A stretch of 64,000 bases of DNA from Candidatus Aquitaenariimonas noxiae (GTDB lineage: Bacteria; Omnitrophota; Gorgyraeia; Aquitaenariimonadales; Aquitaenariimonadaceae). Numbering within the stretch: the stretch's first letter is position 1; every line of letters begins with the position of its first letter. Positions 508-47,116 of this stretch are shown one piece after another. The position numbers and the translations under genes are program-made. The DNA lies in assembly GCA_002780005.1 (NCBI GenBank), contig PEWV01000025.1, positions 25,150 through 89,149 of the forward strand, in the 5' to 3' direction. The notes under the pieces were generated by a model. That model ran no database searches. It saw nothing but the letters and a program-made list of their open reading frames with translations, and was not told the DNA's origin.

Positions 508-1038
508 TTACGCCTTTCCTATAAATTCAGCCTCTTCGTCATATCTTTGCCTCAATTCATCGCTCGTAAGCGGTTTCGCGCCTTCCTGGACGCTCAGAAT
601 AAGTTTCAAAATACCATTTTCTTCGCTTTCGGCGACGTACGGTATCGGCTCATGCGGCTTATTCAATAATCGCTTTAAAGCTAATTCTATTATTCTGGTA
701 ACAGGTATATATTGATTTAGACTTTCCCCTTCAATCACTTGGCTATCGTCTACAGAAACAATTTGAGCCTTACCGGCCAAAGAATCAAACATATGTTTCC
801 CCCTATTAGACTCTTTTACAACAGAGACGACCCTTACCTTTTTGCCTGCTTTTTCCGCATCTCTTATATAACTATTTACTCGCGCTGATAGTTCGGTGCC
901 ATCGCTTGCAATTACTACTAAATTCGAAAGGCCTTCTTGGTCTTTGAGTTCGGCCAATACTTTTAGCAGATTCGGGGCATAACTACCTAAATTTCCTATT
1001 GTCGTATCTATGCCCACTAATATCTCTTCGCCGTCCTC
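508..1038 (-). other. conserved C-terminal module (~175 aa) shared by the giant paralogs, copy 1
   Basis: EILVGIDTTIGNLGSYAPNLL..NLVVIASDGTELSARVNSY..KKVRVVSVVKESNRGKHMFDSL..QIVSVDD..YIPVTRIIELAL..KPHEPIPYV..ENGILKLILSVQEGAKPL..RYDEEAEFIGKA* is about 60-65% identical to the C-termini of the 11597..24508 and 24511..34656 proteins. Confidence 0.75.
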
Positions 1039-4000
1039 TTGCGCGGGTTTTGCCAGTCCTCTTAAACTGCTGACAAAGCTTCTAGCTTCTGCTGCTAAAG
1101 ACTGACCCTCGAATGCGCGGCACAAGGCATCGTATAAAACAGGTCCGTCCCGATAATGGTATTGGATACCCGATATCCCGGCTGATCTTGCGGTAGTTAC
1201 ATAATCTTCGACATCGTCTATAAAGACCGCGCGGTCAGCGCTCACGCCGGCCCTTTCCAATGCAGTTTCGAATATCCTTTTGTCAGTTTTCATGCAACCG
1301 ACATCGCATGAAGCAATAACGCCGTCGGCTATCCCGAAGATATCTTTGTATTTGGATGGCATATAGTCCCGATGGATCGGGTTTGTATTAGTAATAATAA
1401 ATATCTTATATCCTCTCTCTTTGAGCGCGGCCATCATATCTGCAACGGGCTGGTTCGCTTCGTATATATCTGAGAATATCGGCATAAATTCCTCAAATGT
1501 CATATTGAGGTTAAAAATCTTTTTCAGATTCTGGAAATATGCCTCAGGCGTTACCTGTCCGCTTTCAAATGGAACCAATATCTCATCGGAAAGTATTTTT
1601 TGATAAATAAAATCTTCCGTCTTGTCGGAATATTGCGCGAGAGCCCGCGTCGCTCTGTGGTAATCGACTTTTAATAATATATTACCAGCGTCAAAGAATA
1701 CGGTATTGACAGCTGCCGGAGCAGGAAATTCGTATGCAACCCGTGAACTCTCTGCCTGAGTTGCCAAAGCGCTGAAAGCACTCGTGTCGTTCACCTCGAT
1801 GCCCTGTGACGCCAGAATACGTTCAAAGCGTTTCAAGAATTCCATTCCCATTTCGGCGCGTGTCAGATTTGTATCGTTAGGTTCTCTCGGGTCAAGCTCA
1901 AAATACTTATCGCCGACAAGAAAATCGGCGAGGAACCTGTCGCACCAGGTATGATAATATTCCAATATATAGCGGTATGCATACCATTTCATGAGCCCTC
2001 TATCAATGCGATTAGTCTGGCCCAGTTCTATGTAACCATCTATAATGCAGTCCGCGAGATAATCAACAATACTCATTAAAAGTTGCGGGTCATCATTTAT
2101 ATCGCCATAATTCATCACAACCATATATGTCGTTGTGCGAATTGCGATAGCTAAATCATTAAAAAGTCTGGCCGGTTGAGTACTGTCCGGATCTAGCCAG
2201 GAAGCTACATATAATTCACCCGTATCGGGTTTTCTTTTAAAGATCGCGTTTTTAGGCCTCACATCATTATTATATATGCCGGTACCTATATTTACCTCGT
2301 TATCCGGAAGATAGCGCCTCGCATTAAGATCATCAAGGAGAGGAGATACGCGTTTTTCATATCCGGACATCCTATCTCGCTGCAATTCAACTTTTCGCGA
2401 CGAATCCTGGCTGAGACTTAATGTAACACGTTCGCCGCTTAGGACAGAATTCAGATACGACCAATGGTATTTAAGCGATGTCATGTTAGGCAGGGGCGTC
2501 ATCCATTGATCCGACTCTATTGAATTATACATATTATCTATTACAGCTATGGATCTGCCTATATTGTAAATCGCTGTAAGCAGGTCTCTTTCCGGAATGT
2601 CTTCTAAGGTGAGGTATGTTTCTATTTCACCCGGGATCCCCTTACTCACGCGCCATACAGCCCCATCAGCGTCGCGGTACAGCTTTGTTAAAACCCCGCT
2701 GCGACATGCGCTTTTAACATTAAGAAAATCTAATCGATCCCAGTCTTCCGGCAAGACTGTCTCATTCTGCAATCGTTCCAATAATTGTAAGTTATGATCC
2801 ATTGCCTCAACGTTAAAAACTGAGTTGATTTTCTGAACAAAATACTGATATTCAATGCCTTCCTCTTTAATAACCAGACGGTAGGTACGGTTGATAAGAC
2901 CGAATTCGATTGTTTGACATGTGCAATTTTGAGGTGAAGCCTCATATGTGTTTTCAAATGCGTTAAAAATATCCATTACTTCTTTTGCCTCAAGGGTCGG
3001 TGTAACAGCAGACGACTCAACGCCTGCCCTGCCTTCAACGCTCACTCCGGTTTCGGCATCGCGTTCGGCCTTTATGACCCTGCGCCTTGATTCCATAACT
3101 TTGAAAGCCGCTTCGCAAATATTCGGCAAGCCGGAAGCAGCAACGCCGTAAAACCCGTATTGCTGTATAAGAAGGCGAATAAAATAAGGAATACCCGGTT
3201 GCTGCATGTCTTCCTTTAATGCAGCTGACGAAAGGCCATCTATCGGATTTTGTATAGTTGCAAGTGGAATTACAGACTCTACGCTTTCAAGCCTCTTTTG
3301 CAATTCCTCACGGTGATTTTGCCGCGATATCAATGCGACACCAATGCTATGCGAAGGCGACAATCTTTGCTCCGTCACCAATGGTTCAAATCTCCGCCAT
3401 AATTCATCTCCGTACTCGTCGCCGCCGATGTAATATGCATTAACTCCTATATCAGGATTTACATCCAAAATCTCAGGAATATATTGAACGCTTGTATCGT
3501 CTCTTTTTGAGCCGATGGGTGAAAATTGAACGATCGGCGCAAGACGGCTTGTCATCGCCTCTATAAGGCCAAAACGAACTGATTCGCTAGACAATCCGGA
3601 TTTATATGTCGGGGCGCCTCGCGATATTATAATTAATTTATCCAATTTTAAATCAACTATACTTTGAAGCATGACTGCCAAATGACCCCAGTGCGGCGGG
3701 TCACCCGCGATCGGATAAAATCCCACGCGAAGCGGCCGGTCCGGCAAGGCGCCGGATATTACATTTGTATCAGGGTCAAAACTAATTTCGGGGTGTATTT
3801 CGCCGGATTCTATCAAGCCTTGGATTTGCGTCAATAATGCATTAATCGTTGTTTCTATTTCCGCTAATTTTTGACGGCCGGGCTCTGCAACTATAAGCCC
3901 TTCCAGTTCGAGGTCCAGATCGAAAATACCCGGCGCTAAAATCGAGGGCGCTGTTTTAGCGGCGCCTAAAATCTTACGGATTTCATCCGCCGCTTTACCA

Positions 4001-7000
4001 AGTTTCGCCCTATCGTAGCTCCAGTGCTGTAAAAGGCGGTCATTATCTATTTGTATATTACAAATTCTATTTAGAGTTTCTGCGTCTTGAATTTGAAAGA
4101 ATAATGGCGAGAGGCGATATTGCGTAGACTTGCCTGGCCTGGGCGGCTCGATAAGCTGAAGTATGCCTAGCCGCTCCAAGGCTCTTAATTCATTTGAGAT
4201 TGTGCTCCTAGCGTAAGGTTTACCCGTCTTAGAGTTTTCGCTTCTCCATTTTGGGACATCCGCAGTACCATTTATAGCGCTCGTAATCGTTATTGGTTTA
4301 TCTCTTAGGGTGTCCCTGCTACCAAACAAATCCCGCAGCGCTTCGGCCGGCGAGCCTTCAGGACCTTTCGCTTGCATGAACTTGCTTTGCACCTCGGCAA
4401 AAATCGCATAGGCGTCTTGTCCGCCTTCTAGCGCTAAATATTCATCATGCCGCTCTTCCATAAGGCCGTCTATTATTCTACGCGCCTCATCACTCACGCG
4501 ATTATATTTTTCATGCACTTCTGCGCTGAATTCTTCTTCTCTGCCCTTACTCCTTAAATCCATAAGGTCATTTGTAAATAATACCGGCGTAAAGAACGAC
4601 ATAGCATCCGCATCCCTTAAGACCGCAGAATCTTCTATTAAATGCGCCAGCGTAGCTTCTTGGGCCGGTAAGGGTTCAGGCATAGTGTCTTTTCTTATGC
4701 CTTTCTCGTGGTTTCGTATCAGCAAATCCACGTTCGCTATTAATCTTGGGTCTATTCCTAATAATTCCAATAGCGACCTTGCAAAATCTGCGGCCATACG
4801 GGGATGTTGTATCGGTTTATAATAATTCTGATGCCGCGGGCTATCAACCGGAGGCTCATCCTTGATCGCGACATAATACCCGTCAAAGAACCTGTCAGCG
4901 TCGTGCAGCATTGACGCGATCAATAATTCGGGCGATGGTTCGGCCGCTAGCCTTCTAACAACATCCGGGAGCGCCTGCATGTGAGGCGACATATTTGCCC
5001 TGAATAATGGGTCCGAACAATTGGTGATTTCGCATAATCTTCCCAATAACCATTCGACTTCACTGACAGCTTCATCGCCGGTTACAATTCGTTCTTCCCT
5101 GGCACTAACCTTTTCTTCTATTTCCTCTCTTAATTTCACAAGTTGCGCGTCAGAATCCTCTTTATTCGCGGGATCGGCAAAAGCTTCTTCGTATTTTACG
5201 CCATCTAGTCCAACCCCTATGGTAGACTGCACCGCATAAATACCTTCGATCGTAACTTCTGGCGCACCTTCAGGCACTTCAGCTTCACCTTCGATAGCTG
5301 CAGTTATCGTAGCATCAAGATGGTTCCCTGCCTTATCCTGGACCTCTGAGACCTCTCCGTTCTTTACAATTATGATAATTTCTTCATTTGCGTGCCCCGG
5401 CACTTTTATGCGTGAAGTTTTTCCTCCGGGCCCGACCTTGCCTCCTATATCTTTAGTCGCCATTGCGCCCAGGCGAACTCTTTTAATAATGTGATCTTTA
5501 AGTTCGGCAAGCTTCTCCGGTGAAAGCATCTCCCAAAAAGAATCCACTAATTGGCCTTCGGCATTATAAATGAGCGCAAAATTGCAAGTATCTAAAACCT
5601 CCCTACCGGCTCCTAATATTCTCACCTGAGTCACCACGCCATCGATCAAATCAATCTCGACCTCATGCCCTTTATAATTAGTAAACGCTGCCCAATGCTT
5701 GCCTAAATGCAAACCTCCGGAAACATCGTTCAGCCAGAAATGCTTAATAGTGCATGTCCCGAACTCTTTAAGGTCATCAATTGTATCTACCCGGAAAAAT
5801 GATGCCTTCAAATTACCTTCAGGGTCATAAACTAGACTATACCGCCTATCTTGTCCCTCGACTATATTACCTGCGCCATCGAGCAAAGTCGCCCTGCTCA
5901 CGATACCATTCTCAACGACAGTCAGGGCCCCTCGATGATCCGGATACTTATCTATCGGGTATTGTGAAAACACAACAGCGCCCTGGCCGGCTGGGCCGCC
6001 TAGATTTATTACGCCGGCCTTATTTAGTTTAAATCGTTTTATCGTAACATTTTTCAGGCTTAAATATGTCCCTTCTGCAAGCGTATCCCAGAAAGAATTG
6101 AACAATTCTCCTTTTTCGTCATACATAAGCGCAAACTCATGATCTTCGAGTAAGTTATCTTCCTCATCGTATATCCGCACCCTATCATATTGACCTTGGA
6201 TCACATCCAGCTCAACTTTCTTACTCTTATGTTTTGAGAAATGAGGAATAGGTTTTTTCTTTGCTCCTACCGCAAGATTGCCGAACTTATCCAGGCGTAA
6301 ACCCCTTATTGTAACACCGTCATATTCTTTAAACCTTGTAGAGCTGAGATTGCGAAGGAAGGAATCAACGAGTTTGCCGGACTTCTTATCGTAGACTAAG
6401 CAGAATGGCCGAGGAGTCCTTTCGCCTGTCTCTTCATTCACAAGTGTAACTTCCCAAATTTGGCCTTCTCTAACTTCGATAACCGCCTGGTGATATTTAT
6501 AACCTTCTCCCATCTTTACATTTCGTCCGCCTATGGTTAATGTACCATCTTCTTTAACATAGTGATCCCGGATCTCTACGTTGTTCAATTTAGCAAATTC
6601 CGGTTTTTCGATCTTTCCATGGAACGTCTTCACCAATGTTCCGTCAGGCCTATATATAGTACCCAACTGAATGAATTCCACCAATTTGTCACTATCATCA
6701 AATATCCACACCCTATAAGGATGGCCTTGGAGGACTTCGAACTGAACTTTATGTCCAGGATAGTTGCCGAATCTGAACACGTCTACGCCCCCGATACCCA
6801 ATTCGCCTTGCGGTTTTAAATTATTTCCTGTAATGACTACTCCATCATCCAAAGTCGCTAATTGCTCTATGGTGAATTGATCCGAATTGGCAAAGAGCTT
6901 TTTCCTGCTTGAAAGAAGCGCTTGAGCTAAAACCAATCTTTCTTCCTCAGGTGCGGAAAGTATGCTCTGCACCGTAGGAGCCGTTGCTACTGTGGGAACT

Positions 7001-10000
7001 GTTACCGCATCCATGTACAGAGTCATATCAGGGGCGGCAGTAACCGCTTCCATCTGCGATGTTGTAAATTCAGTATCTATCCAGCCCAGGGTAAGGTTAT
7101 ATTTTGCCTCGAGGTATGGCACGAGGGCATAGAGTTCGCCCGGTTTATTAATATCTAGGCGCCGGGTCATTTCCAGCTGGCCTTGGCGGCCTGTAAAATT
7201 TGCCGGCACTTGAGCCAGCAACGCTTCCAGCCTATCCAGTCTTTCAACAGTACACCTTATATCGTGCCAACCGTATTCGCTTATAAACTCAGGTTCGCCG
7301 AATATTCTATACATGTCAGCTAGATTGCTTACGTGGACAGTTTTCGCGACCTCTATCATCCCGGCAACACCCCTATAAGAAGCAGGGGCTGCCTCGAGCA
7401 TGTCCTTTAAATCCCAGAATTTTATCCAACCGACCTGTTGGATCTGGATACCCAAACGACTGCGTACCTCTCTTGAAAGCCTTTCGCAAATCTTGGGGCT
7501 CGCTAATATCTGTGCCCTTCCAAGCCTTATATAACCGCGCTCCACGGCAAGCTCAATATCTCTGGCCAGATAAAAACCTGACTGGCGGCCGGTATATAGC
7601 TCGAGGTTATTCAAATTTTTCAGATCTATCTGGCCCCATCGTGTATTAAACACCTCTCTACCGTCAGGAACTATCACCCTTTCCCCGTGTTCCATTGCCT
7701 GCATTAATTCGTCCAGGCTGTAAACACGCGCCTTGGCCCGGCGTTCATTTATCGCCTGACTAAGGTCTTGGGTAGCGAAACTATTCTGCCGCAATCCTTG
7801 AATATAATTTCTTGCATGCGCAAGAATTAATTTCTTTTCTCCTGCCCCGAAATTGATCGTTAAAACCCTCTCCTCGCCTTTGCCTTCAACGCTGATTATC
7901 CGCCCTTCGCCGTAATGCAGATGCCATATCTTCTGGCCCGGCAAGAGAAGCGGCGGCAGCCTGTTTCCGTGCCTTTGTGTAAATTCCTCCCATTCCCTAT
8001 CAAGCTTTCCCCGGCCCCGGGTACGGGCCGCATTTTCGACTAGTTCCTGCGCATATCTACCAGGCTCGGGTCCGGAATAGTCTGCCATTGTGCGCAATAT
8101 AGAAGATGCCTGCCACGGGTTAATAATTTGTAAATAAACGAAGCGCTCTAATTCCGCGGCGTAGGCTTCATAATCAAAACGTTCAGGAAAACCTACCTCT
8201 CCACCTGTTGTTTCTTCAAAAACGCTAAATTCTCCGCGAGTCAGCTTTCCCTCATGCGCCGAAAGCTTTAGATTCGCCCTGCGTTCGGCCAAGCCTAACT
8301 GTTGATTTATATAGCTTCTTATGCACTCCCGCAATAGCCCTTCATTTTCGTATGGGCCTTGGTAATTTTCAGGGAAGGCCTTTTTTTGGATCTCGCGGCA
8401 GGCCTCGTGGTCGTAAAACGATTCTAGCGCTTCGTGTAAAAGATATTCGGCAACTAAAGAAGTTTTAGTTTCCCCGGAGCTATAACTTTCCACATGCGAA
8501 AGATATCGCACGAAATCTGCGGCATAGCCTAACATCACCCGCTGGCCGCCTAATCTTTCGCCATTCATTGAAATATTTCTTAAAAGCGGGGCGTGTGAAT
8601 TAAATCCCAATACAAAATTATCTTCCTCTGGCGGGATATCCCTTGAGGTAATAATAACAGACCCGAATTCATACATATTTTTAGGTATAAGAGTCATCAT
8701 AATTCCATTTATCTCGTCTTCGCTCAAAAGTCCTTTGAGGCGCGCCCTTATAAATCTGCGCAGATTGTTTAACGGAATATTGGTGTGCCTAAAATTAAAA
8801 GGTTCTATGTCCCCGTTTTCTATTATGCTTTGCAATTCTTCAAGCGCGATCTCGCCTTTTAAAATATATCCGCCGGCAGTATCAGCAGGGCCTGTTGCCT
8901 GGCCCTCCATACCAAGGAGAGGAACAAACCTGTATTCCATGATCTCCCGCGCTAACATAACCGTCTCCTCGCCTGACTCGTCTTCTTTTGCTCTCTTCTG
9001 TATTAAATTAAGAGTGCCTCTTCCGGTTTTTCCTGTAATGGGTATAACTATAGCCCCACCGTCTTTAAGCTCGTCTCTCAAGGCAGCCGGTAAACGGGGC
9101 GCGCCTGCTGTAACCATTATTCCGTCAAAACTCATTTCTTCTCTGAAAAGCGGAGCGCTTCCGTCCCCTACAATAACGTGCACATTATTCCTGCCGGCCC
9201 TGGTTATATTCTTATGGGCATCCTTAGCAAGGCGCTCCAGGGTCTCAACCGTATAAACCTCTTTCACTAAAGATCCTAAAATAGCTGCCTGCCAACCGCT
9301 GCCGGTCCCAATTTCTAAAATAACCGCATTTCTATAATCAGGAATGTTCTCGATTAAGAGCGCTGTCATTTCTGCAACCATAATAGGGCTGGAAATTGCC
9401 TGCCCTGGTAGCGGAGAACTTTCATAAGCAGAAGCTATAAGCCCCGGAGGAATAAAATTGTGGCGCCTATTCTCCATCATGGCATTAATAACATCTCTCA
9501 CTATATCTTCCCTGTGATTTCTCTTTAAGAGTTCCTCCTTTATGCTTGCATAAAGCATCGCCTCTTTACTTTGAAGTTCTTCTTCAGTCATATCTCGGCT
9601 GGCCATCAGTTTATGGGTCACTGCTTCTGAAACAAGTCCAAAAGCTGGTAAATGCGTAACTGAATCTTGCAAAGAGGTTATATCGCGTGACATACTGTCT
9701 ATTCTTGAGATAAGAGGAAGGGTGTGTTCGCCTCCTCTTCTTACAAGGATCCCCCTTGCAGCATTAAAGCCAACTGTCAGCGTACTCATGCAGGATAAAA
9801 ATGCCTCGCCACTCCAGCGATTTAAGCCCTCAATCTTTATTCCGCGAAGATCTTGCAACACGCGGCTGATTAATGTCAATAATGCCCTTATTTGAGGAAT
9901 CCCGGCATCGCCGATATCAGCTGATAAGGTTTCAATGTTTTGGATTAAATTTCTTACAGCCTCCTCGGCTTTAGCTGCTTCCCCTCCGGGCCCTTTTTCG

Positions 10001-11595: not shown

Positions 11596-11596
11596 T

Positions 11597-12136
11597 TTAC
11601 GCGTTTCCTATAAATTCTGCCTCTTCGTCATATCTTCTTCTTAATTCCTCTTCGCTCAAAGGTTGCGCAGGAGGCAGCATAATAAATTTCAATATTCCAT
11701 CCTCTTCCCTTTCTTCAACGTAAGGAATCGGCTCGTAAGGCTTATTTAAAACCCTCATTAAAGCGCATTCAACGATTCTTGTTATCGGAATAAATTGGTT
11801 GAGCGTTTTTCCGTCTTCGCTCATTATTCTCGTATCATCTACCGAGATAATCTGAGATTTGCCTTCTAGCGAATTAAACATGCGCTTGGCCCTATTGTCT
11901 TCCCGCACAATAGCTGCAGCCCTTACCTTCCTGCCTGCCCTTAAAGCATCTTCTAAGTATGCATTTAAATGCGCCGAGAGGACATTTCCTTCACCTGCAA
12001 TCACGGTTAAATTATCCAACCCTTCTTTTTGTCTAAGCTCAGTCAATATTGTAAGTAAATTCTGCGCATAATCCCCAAGATTGCCTATTTCCGTATCAAT
12101 GCCTACCAATAGCTCCTCGCCATTATCTTTAGCTTC
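11597..12136 (-). other. conserved C-terminal module, copy 2
   Basis: EELLVGIDTEIGNLGDYAQNLL..NLTVIAGEGNVLSAHLNAY..KVRAAAIVREDNRAKRMFNSL..QIISVDD..FIPITRIVECAL..KPYEPIPYVEEREEDGILKFIM..RRYDEEAEFIGNA*. Confidence 0.75.
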
Positions 12137-18100: not shown

Positions 18101-21100
18101 TAGAATAGTCAAGGTAGTCGCTCCAGTTACCCAAGCAATTCCAACAGGATGAATCACAAGAATACCCACTGCCAAAAGAATACTCGCTACAAACATCGCA
18201 ATACTTGTCTTATAACTAACTCCTCGCGCCAGAAGCGATATGGAGAGCGCAAGAGGAATAAATAGAACAAGTGCCGGCATAATGTGCATACCTACCAATA
18301 AATTAATAATCATAAAAGAAGCGCCATAAAGAGCGAACGCACCAAAGAACCGGCCTGCGCTATTGGTAGCATTGGATCCCGCTCTTTGGCCTGTAGGCAT
18401 AGCCTTTACAACGAATCCGGAAGGAGTAAATGCATCTTCGGCATAATAACGGCTTGATACAAAAAGGGATATCTGGTAGAAAAGGTGCTCATAATCTTCT
18501 CTTGTAGAGGCGTTCTCTTTCAAGCCGGCCAAATATTCTAATCCTCTTTCATCAAAATAATTGCCTGAAGGGAACGAGGGCTTTTCTTTTGTGAAATATT
18601 CCCGGATTTCATCAAATAGAGGTTTGTTATAAACGCATGAGGTGTAGAGTATTAAATCTCTGAATACCTGGGCTTTTTCTTCGTCTTTTTCTTCAACGGC
18701 CAGGCCTATACTATTATCATGGCCTAGTTCGTGGAACAGGCGTTCTGCTAAAAGCCATTTAGTTGCGGAGCGGTATTCTGAAGGTGCACTTAATAATGTT
18801 TCAACAAATGTTTTATTTAAAAGTATTTCGACATTGCCATTTATATCTATGTAACGTGCGGCATTTACGGTAAAGTTGTCAGACGACACGACGCGTATAA
18901 CAGGGGGCGCCCTGTTCTCTTTAAGATTTCGCGCGATAATATCTTTCAAGATAGCCTCTGCCTCGGTGCCCTGAGTTTCGGTTTCTAGCGCATCAAGGGC
19001 GTCGTACACAAGGCCTTGCAGCTTCTCCCTGTCACCCTGGGCCTCTCCACCGCGAACCGGCCTTTTCGATTTTTCAAGCTGTAGTTCTAATCCGTCATAT
19101 TTTTCATCAAACACCAAATCCTCATATTGTATAGGTCCGGTTCCTTCTCTAGCGGTAAGCATGGTTTTCATGCTCTCCCCGGACGCTTCTTGTTTCGTGC
19201 GCACCAAGGCAAAACGCCTGCTTAATAACGGCAAAAGTAGGCGCGCGACAACATAAGCGACCAGTGATGCGCCGACTAATATCAGAGGTCCCGTGCCAAA
19301 AGTCGGAGGCGTTGCTACCGCTGGAGGAATGTTAGCTACACCTTGTAGATATCCACTTAGTTGTTGGTGATAATTGTTTATAAAATTGCCGGCAAAATAT
19401 AAAGTTGCCCCGGTCGATACAACACCCAGGATCTGATTTAAGAATGTCCCGAACCCTATGCCAACCCAATATTTTGTAAACCTATGGCGGAGTTCCCGCT
19501 CAAAAATACTATACCAAACCATGCTCACAAAACTCATTTCTATCGTATCGATGAAACTCGCCGCAAACAAGAAAACGGTATATGTGAGGGGCATTGTCGC
19601 AGGGTTAAACAGGAATATGAAGATCTGCGGGAATAGTATGGTCTTGAATAAGACTGAAGCCAATCTTATAGTGCATATCCATAACCATGCCTTTCTGAGC
19701 TTTCCTTCAGCCCCTGAAGTATCTCCCTGCAAGGCTTCGTCGGCTTTACGGTAAGACACGTAGCTTGAAATCACCATTACTATTGAACTCGCAATGCCTG
19801 CCAGGAAAGAAGTCATCGCTAACCTGGTGAAAGATTCGCCCATGAAATTGTAAGGAAGGACTACCAACACCCTTATTATGCCTCCGAAAACATTAGTCAG
19901 GAGCCAACCGATCTCGCCTAGGGCAAAAATACGGCTCCGGAAGAAGCTCCTGTAAAGCTGCCATTTTTGGCTGAAGGTGTCAGTATCCTTTTCATAATAC
20001 ACAGCATCGGGCGTCTCGGGCGCGGCGCGCCTAAAACCGACCAAAACTCTATCGGTCTCGGGCGAAACGTCATCTTTGGCGACTCTGATCTTATTTGCAT
20101 TAAATTCTATCACTTCTTCAATAGGCAATTCCCCTATTCCCGGCAATTTGACAGAACGTATATCTACGATCCGTTCGGGCCAGGTTTCGCACACACACGT
20201 GACATTAACCACTGCTGCTGCTACGCTTTGCCCTGTCTCTGCGTCATGATAATATACAAGATAATCTTTTCTGTCCTTTACACTGCCTGCTGTCGAGGCC
20301 TCTTCCTGTAAGCGGCCTGCTTCTTCGGTATTTCCGGACGGCGCAATAGAATCCAAAAGCCCAAGCCTTCTATTTTCCGCGTTTATTTCAACAACTTCAT
20401 ATTTCCTTACTTCCGGCGAATATATAACTACCGGCTCATCGGCCAGATCTTTACGAAAATCTTCCACCTCGAAAATAAACCTATCCTCACCCGGATCATA
20501 ACTCACCGGGAAGCCCCATACATAGATAACGCCTTCTTCTTTAAGCCTAATCTCGGCTTCGGCTCGTTTTGTCTCGAGCGCTTCGCGCACAGCCGGATCA
20601 AATTCAAATTGGACCAATAATCTATCTACCCAATTATTGTTTCCATTTGTTGAATACTCGCTTGTAATTTTAAACTCTCCTGGCCCGACCTCTTCAGCTT
20701 TTAATCCTCTGCGCTGCCAACCATACTGGACGAGCTCTGCCCTGCATGACCCGTTAGACCATCTCCACATATGCCGCCACGGATAGAGCAAATTTCCAGG
20801 GCCTTCTTTATATTTAAATCCCTCGCCAGCGCAGACAACCATATTAAACCGGTCAGGATAGAATATAAACCACTCTCCTTTAGCGTCCTTAACCGGACGT
20901 ATATTGGAATCACCAAGGCATTTGACTTTTAGGCCTCCTCCGAAATCATAATAAGTAACCAAGCCTGATCCCTCATTGAGTTTAGTCACAACATAACTTG
21001 TGCCTGGTGTTGTTATCCTGATATAAGGATTAAAGGGTTGGCGCACAAAGATTGGGAGCAAAGCCTTACTTACGGCATAGATCACTGCAAAAGGTATCGC

Positions 21101-24100
21101 TATCCAGAAAAGGCTCAAAGCCCGCTCTATAAGCATATGCGGGCTTTTCAATTCAACAGTATAGGAAATATACTTTACGATCACGGCAATAACGCCGGCT
21201 CTTAATAATCCGGCAATTACCTGGCCTATACCCAAAAGGCTCCAGAAATTAGTGCGGACATCTTTAGGCACGGTCCTGTCCCAGCGCACTGTCCTTTCTT
21301 GTATGATACGGCTATTTCCGAACTGTATCATATTTCTATATGCGGATACTAAATTGCTAATTATAAGAACGGCCATAACTACGCCCTGCGCCGAGATCCC
21401 AAAAAGCCCTGCCCAATGCGGTTGGGCAAGTAAGGTAGCCAATAGAAAATAGATCATTACGAAAGCGAATCCAACCATAACCTGCCAGAAGGCAACCCAT
21501 TTTCTATCCTGTATTAATTGCTCCCTTAATTTGAATTCGGGCGACATGGCTAAACCGCTGCGGCGTTCTTGATACGGTCTTTCCGCATCTTTTATCTTTT
21601 CGGTACGATTCATGCGGGCATAGACTATCGTTACTGCAAGTATTGCCGAGAATGCTACAAATGATAATTCCATCCACAAAAATGACATGGAAAGGATGCC
21701 GAATTGCATTTCGGCTACGCGGGTTAAAGTTAAAAGAAGCACGGTCTCCAAAACCCCGAAGGAAGGCCAGGCTAAAAGCTCTCCTACTTCGAGCCATAAA
21801 TTCATAGGGCTTGCCGGCAGGTATCGCGTAAAGTACATACGAAGGAGGCCAAGGAAATTTGGACAAGGGGTCGAGACGATTTCCGGGGGATGAACTTCAA
21901 AAGCTACTATTTCGCCCTGATGTTCCGATGAAAATCTGCCACCGTCAAAACCATCTCTGGTGTCATTCCATCGGACTTCAACGCCCCTTACCCATATTGA
22001 TCTTCCCCTGGTAAGATGATCAAGGATCTCGTCTTTTCTTTCTTGCAAAATGCCTATTATGGAATTGCTGCCGAACTTATTAAGAAATCTCTCCCAAATA
22101 TGCTCTGCGCGCTCATCCTGACGAGATGGCTCAGGCGCTTGGGCTACTTCCGCCTGTTCATCACGTAACCTATTTAGGACTATTACAGCTTTGCTCCATA
22201 TAAAAGGTGCTACCACGGCTGTCCAAACATAAGCTATTAAATCGCTTCCTAAAATACTTGGAAGTCTATGAATAGATTCGTGAGATAAGATAAGTCTTTG
22301 GTCCTGCGGCGAGATAGATTCGAGGGCTTCCCGTATTCTCTCTTTTGTTATACTAGAACCTTTTCTGATGCTGAATGCTAAATTTTTGTCTCTGCCTGTA
22401 ACTATTAAGACATCTTCTGTTTGCTTTTCACTCTCTATGAGTTCTCTTTCTAATGCGACTTGTAAAGACGGATGAATGTCAAAAGGTGGTCCTGCCCTCG
22501 TAGGCGCGCTGGTAGATAAATGCGCCAGCATGTTCAGCGGGCCGCGCGACAAATTGAACAATCTCACGGCTGAAACTGAAAAATAAACTCCTAATATAAA
22601 CGGCAAAGCTGCAAATAACCAGTGCGCATTCAAATAAAAAGCTATAGCGACTCCTGCAATCCCGCCTAAAGCAAAAAGGCTGCTTGCGAAACCTGTAACC
22701 ATTGCCGGCTTAGGAGCGATCGGTATTGAAGAAATATCCTCTTCATCAGATAGCGCCAAAGTCGGCTCTAGATCTAAAATGAATTTATTCTCATCCTTTT
22801 CTCTAAATCCGAACCTGTTAGCGATCGAACGCATTTCTTCATTTATACCTGCAATCTCGCAGCTAAACCTTGTATAACCCCGCCCTTCCAGCCGTTCTAT
22901 AAAAATCTCGAATAACTTTGTACCTATGCCTTGTTCTTGAAAATTAGGATCTACCGCCATTTCTCTAAGCTCGAACGTCCTGCCGTGCACAGGCGAACCG
23001 GTTATATATCCTTGGACCTTACCATTTACCCTGCAGACTAAAATATCCGGCTTTATTTCCGCATCGCCCTGCGACATAGCGATGATCGTTCTATAACCGC
23101 TGGAAAAATCATGGCCGCCGGCTTTTTTGGCTTCTTCGGCTCGGTGCGGATAGATTAAAGAACTAAGCTCTGCGATCCTTCCGACATCATTTTCAAGGGC
23201 CAGCGTAATTTCCGCACCCTTGCCTATTTCTGCAATTAAGATATCTTCTTCTCCGAAATCTAACGCATACTGGACAGGCCTTTGGGCTTGAACAGGCTGT
23301 GGCTCATTTAACACATCTTCAACAATTTGAGTAAGCGAGCTGAATTCCCTGTGGCTTATCCGGGAATAACCCGGAGGCGCCCTGGCAGATTCTGATGTAA
23401 CCCAGTCGGCGACATCCAAAAACATATCTCTATCTTCTAAAGACGACCAAACAGGAAGATCCATAACTGTGGAATAGTCACCTATCGGCAGCCTGCCGAA
23501 GAGTTTCCAAAATCTCAAGGGGACTATTACGTGGTAGATCAGGCCCCTTAATTGTTTTTTTGTCGTAAGCGAGCTCAAGTTTGACGGATAAGCGATCCCG
23601 TACAAATCGCAATAATCCCTAACTATTTGTTTAACATCAGCGATCGAGACATCAGATCCTTTAAATTGCCGCCAAAATCTTATTCTTTCCTCTTTTTCAT
23701 AATCAAAAATTGTGCGATCCTGCCATGACGCGCCGTGTCTAAGCGCCCATAGGGCAGGATGTGTTTGTAAAATAGCGCCTTGTTCGGAAAGCTCCTTTAG
23801 TCTATGTGCTGCTATTTTTCTTGTAACTTTATTACTGTCTGTAAGCTTTTTAATTAAAGTTGCGAGCTCAGCCCTGCTTATTTGAGCAGTAACGGCTTCT
23901 GCATTATCGGCGGGTTCTTTTGGTTCATCCCTATCGGCTGTTGCGGGAACTGCGACGGCATCTTCTTCGGCAACCGGCAATGCCTTCATCTTCATTATCT
24001 GCCTGCAGAGATTTCTATTTATTCTTACATCTGTGGCCCCCTCTTCCTGGCCTACTAATTCATTTGTATATGGATGAGTTGTCTGGCTTGGATTGTAATA

Positions 24101-24508
24101 ACGAAGGATATAGCCGTTCATGCAGCTTATCAGTATCTCGCCTCTGCCGGTCGTATGTTGCAGTTCTGCAACCCAGCCTTGGCCGGCTTCTGCTAAGGCC
24201 GCCCTTACGCCATCCAGGGACAAGTTTTCTTTTGTCCGGCCGTTCCCGTTTTCGATCAATTCGATAAGAAGCTTGGCCTTTACGCTGACAAGCGATTTTT
24301 CATTATCAAAAATCGACGGAGGAATTAAGGCGTGCCTTTTTGTTAACCCCGTTAGAAACTTTGTTATATTTCTTTTTTTAGATGATATTTCTAACGGGGT
24401 GAATATATCCGGATCGGCATAGGCAACAGTCTGGTATATAAGGCAAAATACTAGCGTTAGCGCTATTGCCTTTACCCAGGTATAATTTTTCAAATTAATA
24501 ATGCTCAT
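11597..24508 (-). CDS. giant (4303 aa) polytopic membrane multidomain protein with GNAT, about 20 TM helices, HExxH motifs, SAM methyltransferase, two wHTH-like modules, HD domain, HisKA plus HATPase_c core and the conserved C-terminal module
   Basis: Uninterrupted 12,912-nt ORF with ATG at 24506-24508 and TAA at 11597-11599, 1 nt before the next ATG. Signal peptide VKAIALTLVFCLIYQTVAYA|DPD. Motifs: QEQGIGTKLFE (GNAT), HELGH and HETAH, VVLDLGCGGGEDS (methyltransferase motif I), LFHDIDRFF (HD), FIHDVLQPMTEL (H-box-like), then LRRILSNLLTNIPRYV, IEVEDDAGGI and GHGLATSRQF..GVGTTFKI (GHKL N, G1 and G2 boxes). Many hydrophobic 20-25-aa stretches at aa 600-650, 905-1150, 1520-1760 and 2050-2180. Confidence 0.85.
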   Translation of the reverse strand: MSIINLKNYTWVKAIALTLVFCLIYQTVAYADPDIFTPLEISSKKRNITKFLTGLTKRHALIPPSIFDNEKSLVSVKAKLLIELIENGNGRTKENLSLDGVRAALAEAGQGWVAELQHTTGRGEILISCMNGYILRYYNPSQTTHPYTNELVGQEEGATDVRINRNLCRQIMKMKALPVAEEDAVAVPATADRDEPKEPADNAEAVTAQISRAELATLIKKLTDSNKVTRKIAAHRLKELSEQGAILQTHPALWALRHGASWQDRTIFDYEKEERIRFWRQFKGSDVSIADVKQIVRDYCDLYGIAYPSNLSSLTTKKQLRGLIYHVIVPLRFWKLFGRLPIGDYSTVMDLPVWSSLEDRDMFLDVADWVTSESARAPPGYSRISHREFSSLTQIVEDVLNEPQPVQAQRPVQYALDFGEEDILIAEIGKGAEITLALENDVGRIAELSSLIYPHRAEEAKKAGGHDFSSGYRTIIAMSQGDAEIKPDILVCRVNGKVQGYITGSPVHGRTFELREMAVDPNFQEQGIGTKLFEIFIERLEGRGYTRFSCEIAGINEEMRSIANRFGFREKDENKFILDLEPTLALSDEEDISSIPIAPKPAMVTGFASSLFALGGIAGVAIAFYLNAHWLFAALPFILGVYFSVSAVRLFNLSRGPLNMLAHLSTSAPTRAGPPFDIHPSLQVALERELIESEKQTEDVLIVTGRDKNLAFSIRKGSSITKERIREALESISPQDQRLILSHESIHRLPSILGSDLIAYVWTAVVAPFIWSKAVIVLNRLRDEQAEVAQAPEPSRQDERAEHIWERFLNKFGSNSIIGILQERKDEILDHLTRGRSIWVRGVEVRWNDTRDGFDGGRFSSEHQGEIVAFEVHPPEIVSTPCPNFLGLLRMYFTRYLPASPMNLWLEVGELLAWPSFGVLETVLLLTLTRVAEMQFGILSMSFLWMELSFVAFSAILAVTIVYARMNRTEKIKDAERPYQERRSGLAMSPEFKLREQLIQDRKWVAFWQVMVGFAFVMIYFLLATLLAQPHWAGLFGISAQGVVMAVLIISNLVSAYRNMIQFGNSRIIQERTVRWDRTVPKDVRTNFWSLLGIGQVIAGLLRAGVIAVIVKYISYTVELKSPHMLIERALSLFWIAIPFAVIYAVSKALLPIFVRQPFNPYIRITTPGTSYVVTKLNEGSGLVTYYDFGGGLKVKCLGDSNIRPVKDAKGEWFIFYPDRFNMVVCAGEGFKYKEGPGNLLYPWRHMWRWSNGSCRAELVQYGWQRRGLKAEEVGPGEFKITSEYSTNGNNNWVDRLLVQFEFDPAVREALETKRAEAEIRLKEEGVIYVWGFPVSYDPGEDRFIFEVEDFRKDLADEPVVIYSPEVRKYEVVEINAENRRLGLLDSIAPSGNTEEAGRLQEEASTAGSVKDRKDYLVYYHDAETGQSVAAAVVNVTCVCETWPERIVDIRSVKLPGIGELPIEEVIEFNANKIRVAKDDVSPETDRVLVGFRRAAPETPDAVYYEKDTDTFSQKWQLYRSFFRSRIFALGEIGWLLTNVFGGIIRVLVVLPYNFMGESFTRLAMTSFLAGIASSIVMVISSYVSYRKADEALQGDTSGAEGKLRKAWLWICTIRLASVLFKTILFPQIFIFLFNPATMPLTYTVFLFAASFIDTIEMSFVSMVWYSIFERELRHRFTKYWVGIGFGTFLNQILGVVSTGATLYFAGNFINNYHQQLSGYLQGVANIPPAVATPPTFGTGPLILVGASLVAYVVARLLLPLLSRRFALVRTKQEASGESMKTMLTAREGTGPIQYEDLVFDEKYDGLELQLEKSKRPVRGGEAQGDREKLQGLVYDALDALETETQGTEAEAILKDIIARNLKENRAPPVIRVVSSDNFTVNAARYIDINGNVEILLNKTFVETLLSAPSEYRSATKWLLAERLFHELGHDNSIGLAVEEKDEEKAQVFRDLILYTSCVYNKPLFDEIREYFTKEKPSFPSGNYFDERGLEYLAGLKENASTREDYEHLFYQISLFVSSRYYAEDAFTPSGFVVKAMPTGQRAGSNATNSAGRFFGAFALYGASFMIINLLVGMHIMPALVLFIPLALSISLLARGVSYKTSIAMFVASILLAVGILVIHPVGIAWVTGATTLTILGAMVSFSAGAMLKQLRSGREITILQRALLVILLLVTIFIPQYVRVQQELGAANDRAIRYKIPENADRAKARRTIRRPDWYRMGNEMRSGSRYIDKRDGQGFLYGPKLRTALMAMRELDPEMFSWMEANDVPIYRDGATPPWVAGYTGRMNRGYAYTFAPGGAGVRYNINPVEYSRQAIENAVRAGKVDIPIEEVQELTEEDLDTSSVANIYSVIEHETAHYRELWPYYDNWISEKILDNITMFKLIDIEKRAFNRAMEGKERAGYHVTFLDKFEYVQKAYNIQRMMIIFTTIIKDVFLILLVWFLSNPIRIVRGIRRGILSHCFIDYETYFLMSDVIGDIRSGKWRKTHRKLRDFVEERVSSVHDAIMYRIEWRPDALIVWRDIHMAFAAYAENVARDRQRKGDRELWEDTLRRLSALRPVVHRRDGLTARHLLNRYFDRNLYICGPARIDEQGNIAWPVTNMKPDSDTPHYWDEFERRATVGWLVIETAYANALRREGVRRVYLERRDRSQRNLSQDQIDRLFGGPIRPLKPHSTIAGPGVREEDHDNITNPMLERIFDGEKPGCYISDTEGSETRQSQEDNKLLADLRGLTLNYYKDTPEEAEASEDLKDTNIYLLDPDARSPPEARSYCLWQDVADPVARFVIGHAGRGLGGHFREGEFPAQQNGYLPLALMRQLMVDRAREKVRDNIGRYNYLTRVIALMVRHEARHAREKKLTNGETEEVEQEVAEMMRALHPYLSANQARLLEERFEEFGDKVAQILEHYGTFTAQEIEDSERLLESWRSSAVLTPIELWQLWSYLTLTGREMGEEYAQLHRDIVGLISEAFKNGKKDEQDIVPQIDGVVIGYPWRRSDPSMERAANIIDKKRALLERVAFRSGEVVLDLGCGGGEDSVDIARNNPEVMVYGIDARSENLKRAIAYADASIPGQSNIRFLQRDFRSNPENIPLRGIPLNDSSVDKILLLSDVFVGQSEEFIVSAWQEVLRVLKPGGQIIFFGSVGLVELEDLLGMKVEDYLIYHIVVKAYWGNLYSYIINVESKPPYAAAHRTYPQGSPAEFLKSILLTKDWPTPELQVLATRFKSGGALTISELQQLRFKNQENFGEGVFSYETVRIEIANLEEAGIVNIDRNSSTHKISLRKELKGKMPRYLVNRLCNIRIDAPSLQRSSRLSSQPLRHYDEVSKLQAEEVHALRQMVDKILGQSTLPDSSTTTQPAPVITAESKKGWHGVTTAFSGLASPKGSPAEALCDLFAHRSQIGINPITVRSAQGEWRRENTRTGKPYARVVIANELEALRRLGFLAIKDAPDSEPREPVRGKPNVYYLTNIFFQIQDEELVDRICDIDVEGDYVMQHCTYSESRLAMARDKITEHMRCTAPIDITHRQESDEILGRLRTAIEENRTNLNKMTDPEKAQWLFDWMDANKNCRDELFIRNMPPHMRSIPGIIREIDPSADPAALIAGLFHDIDRFFEGYYVHPSDGFKGGTPQYLHYKSNQHPRLSANFALKWLREAGVSDKVLGDVEILILRHETGITEEVAAENGFQQEAASDMNLLQRADSISQFIPELLINSYILLERDKGKGEGNAMIRYKYARLVPEDKIRADAFVAAGEETFRQSKEGVETLAVFQSIRSELMHTQGTAEGAKAPLGQPAVTVEPTEESVKMVAFIHDVLQPMTELYGWLAYVQDNLRPDADASEKEKFMAVYTLLDSIKVTQQERKRPYYHGRETGDWNAVVEDGKAFADELRQAYGAVKVYFTENPTRLDAITDPSVLEICRESFEGDFSAAALEFAESGLDMLDSYVMENIELGAFLGGFLQARGKEFHDKNIRIYFEKPQEGLIVKASRGGLRRILSNLLTNIPRYVEAGAEHKVTVRLKPSNGQVLIEVEDDAGGIRKPEMLEKVLDPETQTETKAIFVRGSSDKEDTGILSKGHGLATSRQFALSFGGDMDVDTEAGVGTTFKIILPQVEGKAEPGRIQAERFVENIRALAKEAKDNGEELLVGIDTEIGNLGDYAQNLLTILTELRQKEGLDNLTVIAGEGNVLSAHLNAYLEDALRAGRKVRAAAIVREDNRAKRMFNSLEGKSQIISVDDTRIMSEDGKTLNQFIPITRIVECALMRVLNKPYEPIPYVEEREEDGILKFIMLPPAQPLSEEELRRRYDEEAEFIGNA
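12209..13126 (-). other. histidine-kinase core (HisKA-like H-box plus HATPase_c) embedded in giant gene 2 (aa ~3795-4100)
   Basis: H-box-like FIHDVLQPMTELYGWL, then N-box RRILSNLLTNIPRYV, G1 VLIEVEDDAGGI and G2 KGHGLATSRQFALSFGGDMDVDTEAGVGTTFKI. Confidence 0.55.
13499..13831 (-). other. HD-domain-like region in giant gene 2 (aa ~3560-3670), paralogous to the one in giant gene 1
   Basis: NMPPHMRSIPGIIREIDPSADPAALIAGLFHDIDRFFEGYYV..NQHPRLSANFAL..ILRHETG aligns residue for residue with the MSPHMQALPDVV..LHDADRFFDGYYV..IQHPRMAADFAR..IRNHEKG segment of gene 1. Confidence 0.5.
15059..15541 (-). other. class I SAM-dependent methyltransferase domain in giant gene 2 (aa ~2990-3150)
   Basis: GEVVLDLGCGGGEDS (motif I), MVYGIDARSEN (motif II) and LKPGGQIIFF (post-II). 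Checked at 15421-15448. Confidence 0.65.
22799..23191 (-). other. GNAT N-acetyltransferase-like domain in giant gene 2 (aa ~440-570)
   Basis: ELREMAVDPNFQEQGIGTKLFEIFIERLEGRGYTRFSCEIAGINEEMRSIANRFGF matches the acetyl-CoA-binding motif A (Q/R-x-x-G-x-G/A). Checked at 22860-22951. Confidence 0.55.
23993..24335 (-). repeat. N-module DNA repeat, copy A (5' end of giant gene 2), ~88% identical to 34000..34342
   Basis: Direct read-off alignment: cattatctgcctgcagagatttctatttattcttacatctgtggccccctcttcctggcctactaattcatttgtatatgg.. against cattatctgcctgcatagatttctatttattcttacatctatgacgccctcttcctggcccactaattcatttgtatacgg.. It encodes the near-identical segment LIPPSIFD..VKAKLLIEL.ENGNGRT.ENLSLDGV.AALAEAGQGWVAELQ..GEILIS.MNGY.LRYYNPSQTTHPYTNELVGQEEG..DVRINRNLCRQIMKMKALP. 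Confidence 0.8.
24347..24399. repeat. small palindromic (MITE/REP-like) element inserted in-frame in giant gene 2
   Basis: CCCCGTTAGAAA (24347-24358) and TTTCTAACGGGG (24388-24399) form a perfect 12-bp inverted repeat around a 29-bp AT-rich core. The element encodes ~18 extra residues (TPLEISSKKRNITKFLTGLT) that giant gene 3 lacks at the homologous position between the signal-peptide cleavage site and HTLIPPSIFD. Confidence 0.6.
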
Positions 24509-24510
24509 GT

Positions 24511-25059
24511 TTAGGCTTTTCCTATGAATTCCGATTCTTCCATATACCTTCTTTCAAGCTCTTCTCTTTCAAGCGGTTTTGCATCTTCCTGCACACTAAG
24601 TATAAGTTTTAAAATACCGTCTTCCTCAACCTCTTCAACGTATGGAATCGGTTCATGAGGCTTGCTTAGTATTTTCGTCAAGGCGCGCTCTATTATTTTA
24701 GCGATTGGAATATAGTAATTCAGGCTGCCTGTAAAGTTATCTATAACACGACTATCATCAACTGAAACAACTTGAGCTTTATCGACTAATGATTTAAACA
24801 TCCTTTTCTGCCTATTGTCCTCTTTCACTATAACTACTGCCCTAACCGTCTTACTGTCCCTTTGCGCATCTGAAAGATATGTATTTAATTGGGCCGACAG
24901 AATAGTTCCCTCACCGGTAATGACCCTTAAGTTTTCCAATCCCTCTCGGTCTTTAAGATTAACCAATGTCTCAAGCAGGCCTGGCGCATAATCTTTCAGA
25001 TTTCCGATTGTCGTGTCTATGCCCACTACTAATTCTTCGCCTTTATCTTTTGCTTCTTT
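24511..25059 (-). other. conserved C-terminal module, copy 3
   Basis: EELVVGIDTTIGNLKDYAPGLL..NLRVITGEGTILSAQLNTY..TVRAVVIVKEDNRQKRMFKSL..QVVSVDD..YIPIAKIIERAL..KPHEPIPYVEEVEEDGILKLILSVQEDAKPL..RYMEESEFIGKA*. Confidence 0.75.
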
Positions 25060-34656: not shown

Positions 34657-34755
34657 AATTTTACCCCCCGCAGTTTTTAACTTTTTATTGTATTATCATA
34701 TAACTTGATATGTTATACTATAAATATAATCTTACTTTTTATATGATTTACCTAA

Positions 34756-34784
34756 AGTATAACATAAATGAGAGGGTTTGTAAA
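34756..34784 (-). promoter_or_regulatory. putative sigma70-type promoter for the giant-gene operon
   Basis: On the minus strand: TTTACA (34784-34779), a 17-nt spacer, then TATACT (34761-34756), inside the AT-rich 194-bp gap between the recJ stop and giant gene 3. This is sequence resemblance only. Confidence 0.3.
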
Positions 34785-45040: not shown

Positions 45041-45053
45041 TTTATATATAATC

Positions 45054-47114: not shown

Positions 47115-47116
47115 TT

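Follow-up and report, generated by a model that had tools for sequence, protein, structure and literature searches.

The three giant genes A, B and C, packed end to end in a 64,000-nucleotide (nt) stretch of Candidatus Aquitaenariimonas noxiae DNA (phylum Omnitrophota; contig PEWV01000025.1, positions 25,150 to 89,149; the whole stretch is referred to here as the window), encode proteins that finish in one and the same domain of ~195 amino acids (aa), hereafter the C-terminal domain (CTD). The CTD is a real, ancient and lineage-restricted family, and is undescribed in the libraries and papers that were searched. The reading that we favour, at a probability of roughly 40%, is that the domain serves as a shared C-terminal recognition, retention or assembly handle. 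Its role would be tied to its being the very end of the protein, because it occurs as a single terminal copy, closes in an invariant alanine, has a tail that recurs in a sister family, is paired with a conserved N-terminal signal and is indifferent to the cargo in between.

A single C-terminal domain on three mosaic giants

All long open reading frames (ORFs) of the window lie on the minus strand. Gene A (508..11595, minus strand; 3695 aa, PIU41963.1) is separated by 1 nt from gene B (11597..24508, minus strand; 4303 aa), which in turn is separated by 2 nt from gene C (24511..34656, minus strand; 3381 aa as called, PIU41965.1); A and C are annotated as hypothetical by NCBI. In an all-against-all BLASTP comparison, the C-terminal ~195 aa were the sole segment common to the three proteins, with identities of 59% (A/B), 64% (A/C) and 56% (B/C) and E-values of about 1e-64 to 1e-65; in a MAFFT alignment, the other two copies are 60% and 64% identical to that of A. 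This agrees with the original prediction, made from the letters and translations of the window, of one collinear C-terminal module on three giants, and the motifs then listed (VGIDTxIGNL, VRxxxIVxEDNRxKxMFxSL, VSVDD and KP(H/Y)EPIPYV) are present in the translated C-termini. The module is longer than the ~175 aa first given, with a leading helix beginning ~20 residues further upstream, and the spans are revised to 508..1095 for A (aa 3501-3695 plus stop), 11597..12184 for B (aa 4109-4303 plus stop) and 24511..25098 for C (aa 3187-3381 plus stop), all on the minus strand. The proposed ending EAEFIGxA fits A (...EAEFIGKA) and B (...EAEFIGNA) but not C, which reads ...ESEFIGKA, and the GEG strand is SDG in copy A. 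A fourth copy (...EAQFAGKA) ends gene E, just outside the window and downstream of A.

Other similarities between the giants are pairwise only. The head domains of B (aa 12-178) and C (aa 77-225) are 68% identical, and an unannotated module shared by B (aa 3187-3367) and C (aa 3003-3178) at 59% identity directly precedes the CTD in C. A further unannotated module is shared by A (aa 2113-2550) and B (aa 3365-3786) at 31-44% identity. Because the remaining modules are shared only in pairs, the giants are mosaics, and not the simple paralogs for which they had been taken.

Distribution and strictly terminal position

A profile of the three CTD copies, which the original prediction had proposed as a measure of wider distribution, was searched against 1.84 billion representative proteins and gave 40 matches at E<=1e-3, 26 of them at E<=1e-10. 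The matches all lie at the extreme C-terminus of proteins of up to 4315 aa, bar one weak match (P0039) that is a probable false positive. Word-indexed homologue searches gave almost only self matches or fragments of a distant subfamily (iv); the relatives came from the exhaustive profile search. A scan of species-representative genomes with subfamily iv then gave 33 loci in about 24 metagenome-assembled genomes (MAGs). These MAGs are mostly titled Omnitrophota or Omnitrophica, with seven loci from MAGs titled 'uncultured Planctomycetia', a lineage that also belongs to the Planctomycetota-Verrucomicrobiota-Chlamydiota (PVC) group, and several of the scanned genomes hold two or more copies. The few metagenomic matches that bear names are likewise Omnitrophota, and the superfamily appears to be restricted to this phylum.

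Across dozens of MAGs, the domain occurs at 22-50% identity. The four copies of this genome are 55-65% identical in nucleotide sequence, with third-codon-position identities of 0.34-0.47, and codon analysis gives a saturated synonymous divergence (dS) alongside a nonsynonymous divergence (dN) of 0.28-0.46. Saturated synonymous sites in a conserved protein mean that the copies are old, and that purifying selection maintains the amino acid sequence. The cargo is a mosaic, shuffled between paralogs, and would suit an explanation in which the similarity has no function in the protein, reflecting instead recent duplication or gene conversion, or DNA 'homology arms' for the shuffling of cassettes. 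The chance of this is close to negligible, given the divergence of the CTD among MAGs; gene conversion and recombination arms in particular are refuted by the saturated dS, the near-random third positions and the low nucleotide identity of a conserved protein domain.

A locally iterated hidden Markov model (HMM), run on all fetched sequences, places the CTD in about 98 proteins or ORFs, once in each, with the end of the domain being the end of the protein; neither internal nor confirmed stand-alone copies were seen among them. In the genome loci with a visible ORF end, the stop codon follows the domain directly in 28 of 28 cases. One candidate stand-alone copy (P0019, 198 aa) was rejected as a contig-edge fragment, and other short matches (for instance P0017 and P0026) may likewise be fragments. 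The last residue is Ala in 43 of 45 matches and in all 28 genome loci (71/73 together), and its frequency is 100% when 68 aligned sequences are weighted; a small or polar residue precedes it.

The terminal part of the domain also recurs on its own terms in a sister family. In six arrays, genes upstream of subfamily-iv carriers (L016:1-8427, L017:1-7056, L020:1-5337, L028:3-1022, L030:1-864 and L046:3-1535) end in a different module, with the motif ...F[IR]YLPKAxPIDYxxEIxxY......[AS]A before the stop. Only the last ~55 columns are shared with the CTD, namely a helix, a hairpin, LPxAxPxD[YF], the terminal helix and the Ala (hhalign probability 85.7%, E 5.5e-6, 54 columns), whereas the N-terminal part is different.

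An invariant terminal Ala after a small penultimate residue, as in the ALQAA and ALAAA endings of subfamily iv, is reminiscent of the ssrA tag (...ALAA) and other non-polar degrons at C-termini. The C-terminal helix ending in -[AS]-A-COOH might accordingly be a degron or processing signal, read by a tail-specific or AAA+ protease (Prc/Ctp, ClpXP or FtsH), that would provide controlled turnover or maturation of costly giants. This is very improbable, as a degron needs no ~190 conserved residues, the terminal helix is predicted to be an integral, packed part of the fold (predicted local distance difference test, pLDDT, 91-97 over the block), and no protease gene is linked to the CTD within ±10 kb of about 40 loci, the neighbourhoods to which all statements on linked genes below refer.

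In a separate observation on copy number, three contigs of one assembly in the European Nucleotide Archive (ERZ24794679; L009, L012 and L014) have near-equal coverage (14.8, 15.0 and 15.6) and GC content, and the CTD giants on them stand at three separate loci and represent two subfamilies. The contigs probably derive from one genome, and for this reason the CTD subfamilies appear to be paralogous within genomes.

Predicted fold and the question of a ligand

AlphaFold2 modelled the CTD with a pLDDT of 75 from the three copies only, and with a pLDDT of 95.4 and a predicted TM-score (pTM) of 0.91 from a 28-sequence alignment. According to the latter model, the CTD is an independently folding alpha/beta domain of flavodoxin/Rossmann-like type, as had been anticipated from its alternating beta-alpha pattern. 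A leading helix (2-20) is predicted to be followed by a core of four beta-alpha units (strand 23-30, helices 33-52, strand 59-64, helix 66-82, strand 86-94, a short helix, strand 111-116 and helix 132-143), a beta-hairpin (154-167) and a terminal helix (178-194).

Two signals of conservation stand out in the weighted alignment, which holds 68 near-full-length CTDs (about 56 effective sequences). The first is a cluster of polar residues where strands end on their C-terminal side: D/E (98%) at position 30 and T (89%) at position 31 end strand 1, N (84%) at 58 lies in the loop before strand 2, and D/N (93%) at 116 ends strand 4. The other is the last third, closing in a free Ala, with P (80%) at 171 in the LPxAxP segment, Y/F (80%) at 185 in the terminal helix and the last residue, A (100%), at 195. 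In addition, I (89%) at 33 starts helix 33-52, G (75%) occupies 34, G (91%) at 55 lies in the loop before strand 2, F (88%) at 103 lies between strands 3 and 4, and V/I (100%) at 115 is at the end of strand 4.

The family has no significant match in Pfam (28 CTD members and the family consensus), in NCBIfam or among PDB sequences. Foldseek searches of PDB and BFVD with the model gave no match at E<=1e-3, and the nearest, non-significant neighbours have TM-scores of 0.22-0.45 and E-values of at least 1.3e-3. The model has the three-layered alpha/beta build, with strands in parallel, of type II dehydroquinase, lumazine synthase, SIS and SGNH hydrolases; compared with its flavodoxin/Rossmann-like neighbours, however, the CTD lacks both GxGxxG and a GDS...DxxH triad, and the hairpin and terminal helix are extra. 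Similarly, the NAD(P)/FAD Rossmann fold has a GxGxxG loop after strand 1, where the CTD has DTxIGN and no glycine-rich loop. For receiver, STAS, HAD, PIN and Toprim domains, there was neither a family HMM match nor a close structural match. Several identities suggested by motif resemblance only, namely PIN/NYN, HAD, receiver, STAS (DSSG-like 'DTxIG'), SGNH (GDS-like), vWA/MIDAS and GT-A ('DxD'), were dropped, with no HMM or structural support. In these searches, the CTD matches no known enzymatic family, and it is not peculiar to the giants of the window, since it sits on cargo-diverse giants well beyond them.

Conserved polar residues at strand ends occupy the usual ligand site of Rossmann/flavodoxin-like folds, if the model is correct, and it is possible that the CTD binds a small ligand, a metal or phosphate, perhaps in an enzymatic or phospho-regulatory role, and is C-terminal by chance. 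One version of this tentative alternative is a phospho-acceptor served by the kinase or phosphatase domains of the giants: the CTD directly follows HATPase_c or HATPase_c_2 in B (aa 3981-4100, HATPase_c) and E, and PP2C or HprK is found on other members. In a second version, the CTD would be the core of a Smr-like nuclease that has diverged very far. Smr (PF01713) is the only recurrent weak Pfam signal, and the only family matched by several members (6 of 28, best E 0.0064), but its scores are below the 25.7-bit gathering cutoff (14.8 bits for copy C; 15.0 bits and E 0.029 for the family consensus, of which it is the top match). A MutS2-Smr structure in PDB matches in the same register at E 1.1, and hhalign against an alignment of four Smr sequences (E. 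coli SmrA and SmrB and two from MutS2 structures) gives a probability of 74.5%, over 34 columns only (beta2-GxG-alpha2). Both domains start with beta-alpha-beta-alpha, strand 1 being followed by an acidic residue and strand 2 by GxG, and Smr domains are typically the last in multidomain proteins. The resemblance is confined to that beta-alpha-beta-alpha unit, with 34-45 columns aligning, whereas the CTD is 2.5 times larger and its C-terminal half is different; judged by the order of secondary structure elements, the two domains seem to diverge in topology beyond helix 2. The LDLHG and HGxG signatures of Smr are absent from the CTD family, which has [DE]-T-x-I-G-N and GEG (SDG in A) instead, and subfamily iv has lost D117 and GxG. 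The top 50 Foldseek matches of the model include no structure of the Smr, STAS, receiver, HAD, PIN or Toprim type. Moreover, an enzymatic role leaves unexplained both the invariant terminal Ala and the survival of the last third in the sister family.

Carriers: a conserved signal, few heads and heterogeneous cargo

Full-length carriers start with a family-typical, hydrophobic Sec-type signal that is preceded by basic residues and followed by an AxA-type site; of the 56 unique carriers with a length of 600 aa or more, 38 have such a signal, and most of the remaining ones are truncated. In A, the signal (11506..11595, minus strand) reads MIRMRKKKLIQIVALITSWIFLCQNISFA and then G (...WIFLCQNISFA before the G), and in B (24413..24508, minus strand) it ends in NYTWVKAIALTLVFCLIYQTVAYA before DPD. 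The signal-like hydrophobic segment of C (34363..34449, minus strand; aa ~73-97) is KKPIIKIISFLLIISFTFQNILYA, followed by NPD. These signal peptides are unusually conserved in sequence, with F-L-x-Q-N-x-x-[FWY]-A in the lineage of the window and ISLxLIxTFISLDISYAYPPE...STLAxPSxLQ in subfamily iv.

Behind the signal lies a conserved head domain, of which there are a few types. A shares one type with gene D, its downstream neighbour, and B and C share another. The head motif FCLKQPTTFCPDEIV of A carries two Cys residues, the first of which is Ser in D. A lipoprotein signal was considered and dropped, the Cys not being conserved.

Between the two conserved ends, the cargo varies. The signal peptide of A is followed by the Cys-containing head domain and by PCMT methyltransferase, PcrA-tudor, cytidylyltransferase-like and HAD domains; that of B by the second type of head domain, GNAT, transmembrane (TM)-like segments, an S-adenosylmethionine (SAM) methyltransferase and HATPase_c; and that of C by the same type of head domain, a pseudouridine synthase, HEAT repeats and ~6 TM-like segments, with the CTD last in each; the enzyme sets, as assigned by Pfam, are unrelated. 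Relatives carry PP2C, PHP, GNAT, Fic, SecA, PPDK_N, HprK, RelA/SpoT, radical SAM and glycine-cleavage P protein domains, and one (P0033; L010:5638-15852) carries a complete hybrid histidine kinase (PAS/HisKA/HATPase/REC/Hpt).

A crude hydropathy scan finds no internal TM segment in A, ~18-20 hydrophobic segments in B (17000..22700, aa ~600-2450) and ~6 in C (28100..30400, aa ~1430-2180). Of the 38 signal-bearing carriers, 22 have no further TM segment and the others have 1-20. The CTD is thus found on polytopic membrane giants and on signal-only giants alike, and since most members have the N-terminal signal only, the CTD is predicted to be exported. Some carriers combine a Sec-type signal and no other TM segment with domains that need cytoplasmic cofactors (hybrid histidine kinase, SAM methyltransferases and GNAT). 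Domains dependent on ATP, SAM or acetyl-CoA behind export signals are a paradox already raised for giant proteins of Omnitrophota by Nielsen & Lui 2026 (10.64898/2026.06.07.730766). One way out, as a matter of speculation, is that such proteins act in a host or prey cell.

Carriers often stand in tandem arrays in which the next gene starts again with the same signal, and each array member has one CTD and one of the few head domains. With gaps of 1-2 nt or overlaps between genes, arrays of this kind bring to mind polyketide synthase and nonribosomal peptide synthetase (PKS/NRPS) megasynthases, in which conserved terminal modules likewise occur on consecutive, co-transcribed giant multi-enzyme proteins. 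By this analogy, the CTD could be a homo- or hetero-oligomerisation or docking domain that would join co-encoded, translationally coupled giants into a multi-enzyme assembly, for example tail to tail, or tail to head with the conserved N-terminal domains. We consider this doubtful as a separate explanation, although it overlaps with a handle and does not exclude one. Loci with a single giant exist (L012), and docking domains do not typically combine a conserved polar pocket with an invariant last residue; those of PKS/NRPS are short helical peptides of 20-40 aa, whereas the CTD is modelled as globular, 195 aa long and bearing a polar pocket. Oligomeric flavodoxin-like proteins (type II dehydroquinase, lumazine synthase) make up most of the weak Foldseek neighbours, as docking would have it, but at TM-scores of no more than 0.45 they are uninformative.

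A proposed C-terminal handle and known sorting signals

If the CTD is a C-terminal handle, a common partner would read the surface pocket formed by [DE]30-T31, N58 and [DN]116 at the C-terminal ends of strands, and the same partner would also read the conserved last third and the free C-terminal Ala. Whatever their enzyme load, giants would then receive the same treatment at the cell envelope, be it targeting, tethering or assembly. That the domain is a handle and not an enzyme, that a partner exists and where in the cell the domain acts are all inferred here. The sorting or assembly role put forward in the original prediction gains circumstantial support from the terminal position, the last Ala and the Sec-type signal, but the co-conserved machinery that should accompany it was not found; 'sorting or assembly domain' is a reasonable hypothesis rather than a finding.

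Several observations weigh against a handle. No co-conserved transporter, sortase-like or processing gene occurs within the ±10 kb neighbourhoods of about 40 loci, where the earlier suggestion would have placed one. The [DE]-T dyad after strand 1 and the D/N after strand 4 resemble a ligand-binding or catalytic site equally well. Domains adjacent to the CTD, among them HATPase_c, methyltransferases and the kinase of P0033, need cytoplasmic cofactors despite the predicted export. The number of internal TM-like segments, by the crude predictor used, shows no consistent parity. Finally, the second giant of one related genome (L013:20113-28482, 2789 aa) starts with the signal and head of the family, but no CTD is detectable at its end, which reads ...RMEKRA; by eye this C-terminus appeared CTD-like, an assignment that was dropped at an hhalign probability of 0.65%.

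When ORFs of the same neighbourhoods were clustered, no recurrent family emerged except the giants themselves and antisense shadow ORFs. The yajC and secDF genes found near one of the giant loci, the recJ slot described below, belong to a queA-tgt-yajC-secDF neighbourhood and are absent from the other contexts of the CTD. The order queA-tgt-yajC-secDF is standard in E. coli.

A C-terminal domain shared by cargo-diverse exported or membrane proteins is of a known kind, with an unrelated fold in the present case. A close parallel is the CTD of the type IX secretion system (T9SS). As in T9SS substrates, an N-terminal Sec signal is combined with a folded, conserved C-terminal domain on unrelated cargo, and there are many paralogous carriers per genome. 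In contrast, the T9SS domain is a 70-100-aa Ig-like beta-sandwich (PMC11285876), whereas the Omnitrophota domain is predicted to be an alpha/beta fold of ~195 aa and comes from another phylum. None of the 28 CTD members matched Por_Secre_tail in the Pfam/NCBIfam models, even at E<=10, and no PorU/PorV-like or other linked machinery is found in the neighbourhoods surveyed.

The remaining classes of signal are no better a fit, and the original prediction was right to set aside T9SS, LPXTG, PEP-CTERM and autotransporter signals, given the null results in Pfam and NCBIfam and the modelled alpha/beta fold. Signals of the LPXTG, PEP-CTERM and GlyGly-CTERM type consist of a short motif, a hydrophobic helix and a basic tail, whereas the tail of the CTD is acidic and ends ...EAEFIGKA; A, B and C have no hydrophobic segment in their last >1000 aa, and there was no NCBIfam match to LPXTG, PEP-CTERM or GlyGly-CTERM. 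Autotransporters and outer membrane proteins end in a beta-barrel with an aromatic last residue, in contrast to an alpha/beta domain ending in Ala, and Pfam gave no beta-barrel match for the CTD. The type I (RTX-type) signal is an unstructured stretch of ~60 aa on proteins with RTX repeats and no Sec signal, whereas the CTD is folded and its carriers have a Sec-type signal; ATP-binding cassette and membrane fusion protein (ABC/MFP) genes are not recurrently linked to the CTD in the same neighbourhoods.

A bolder form of the handle is a two-part label, made up of the N-terminal signal and the Ala-ended CTD, on the substrates of a sorting or secretion pathway that Omnitrophota would dedicate to them; this pathway would be a functional analogue of T9SS without being related to it. 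We regard this as unlikely. Such a pathway would export giant multi-enzyme proteins or tether them to the surface, possibly as effectors in host or prey cells, and, if true, would explain the ATP-, SAM- and acetyl-CoA-dependent domains behind Sec signals.

Relation to described giant proteins of Omnitrophota

Omnitrophota are ubiquitous, uncultured, ultra-small and probably host-dependent bacteria; their giant proteins are an acknowledged puzzle, with functions that published surveys describe as poorly understood. West-Roberts et al. 2023 (10.1101/2023.11.21.568195) and Nielsen & Lui 2026 (10.64898/2026.06.07.730766) list methyltransferase, HATPase_c, GNAT, HAD, HEAT, PPDK_N and SecA domains in these giants, together with signal and TM content. 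CTD carriers belong among the giant multi-enzyme proteins of the phylum by origin, by N-terminal signal or TM content and by their many unrelated enzyme Pfams, and with the 'Archaeovorin-type' class 1 giants they share the same domain vocabulary and N-terminal signal/TM content. The published giants, however, are at least 10-30 thousand aa (kaa) in length, whereas CTD carriers measure 0.6-4.3 kaa and are defined by two conserved ends. Full-text term searches gave no report of the CTD or of a terminal-Ala signature in West-Roberts et al. 2023, Nielsen & Lui 2026 or Seymour et al. 2023, and titles and abstracts retrieved by keyword (Omnitrophota with 'C-terminal domain') held no report of either.

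For the first time, the two-ended signature, a family-typical Sec signal and an Ala-ended CTD, defines a coherent superfamily from sequence within the giants of Omnitrophota, and the CTD profile allows these proteins to be catalogued. Unlike whole giants, the CTD is a small and, at a pLDDT of 95, well-folding piece that can be expressed, and it raises the concrete question of what reads it. If the domain is a sorting or retention handle, it would point to new envelope machinery in the PVC group and bear on how cytoplasm-type enzymes come to lie behind signal peptides. An enzymatic role would make it a new domain family; in either case it is absent from Pfam and NCBIfam.

The locus and its surroundings

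On the chromosome, the giants sit in a conserved slot flanked by recJ and by rpmB (opposite strand)/recG/rsmD/coaD, which corresponds to 508..36560 of the window. The slot holds giants in four genomes: the present one, with four, and three related ones whose housekeeping proteins are 70-76% identical to those of the window, with one (L012), two (L013) and two (L007). The giants in the slot differ in enzyme content, and all but the second one of L013 end in the CTD. Its appearance is that of a hot spot in which giants expand and their cargo turns over.

Downstream of A, gene D starts within the window (1..501, minus strand) with MHMRNKKLIRLASLIMTWIFLCQSAGVA followed by E, and runs on beyond it. 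On contigs from other assemblies of the same organism, D is 1097 aa long and overlaps gene E (1103 aa) by 4 nt (L002:21095-27696), an arrangement that is present in two independent assemblies (L002 and L003). The signal and head domain of D are 56% identical to those of A over 147 aa. Because the end of D and the start of E carry the same helix-turn-helix-like repeats, the two are probably a single giant of ~2200 aa that has been split by a frameshift, to judge from the sequence. Past gene E lie rpmB, on the opposite strand, and then recG, rsmD and coaD.

At the other end of the array, the called TTG start of C is probably too far upstream. At the 5' end of the gene (34440..34660, minus strand), 75 codons from this TTG precede the signal segment and hold two near-perfect hairpins, ccgccgatTTTAatcggcgg and gttagagaaCGAAgttctctaac; near the signal peptide there is no canonical start codon, and a sigma-70-like promoter is found upstream, at 34784-34756. 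The hairpin-rich region gave no Rfam match above threshold, and could be a structured leader or reflect an unusual start.

Upstream of the giants are the ordinary bacterial genes recJ, tgt, queA, queH, ruvB/A/C and yebC and a gene for a tetratricopeptide repeat protein. Further upstream of the ruv and que genes, and with no evident link to the CTD, is a large polysaccharide-synthesis cluster (44411..60773, minus strand) that encodes a sugar transferase, a glycoside hydrolase-like protein, an epimerase, GT2 and GT4 glycosyltransferases, a B12-radical SAM protein, a Wzy-like protein, a methyltransferase and a flippase.

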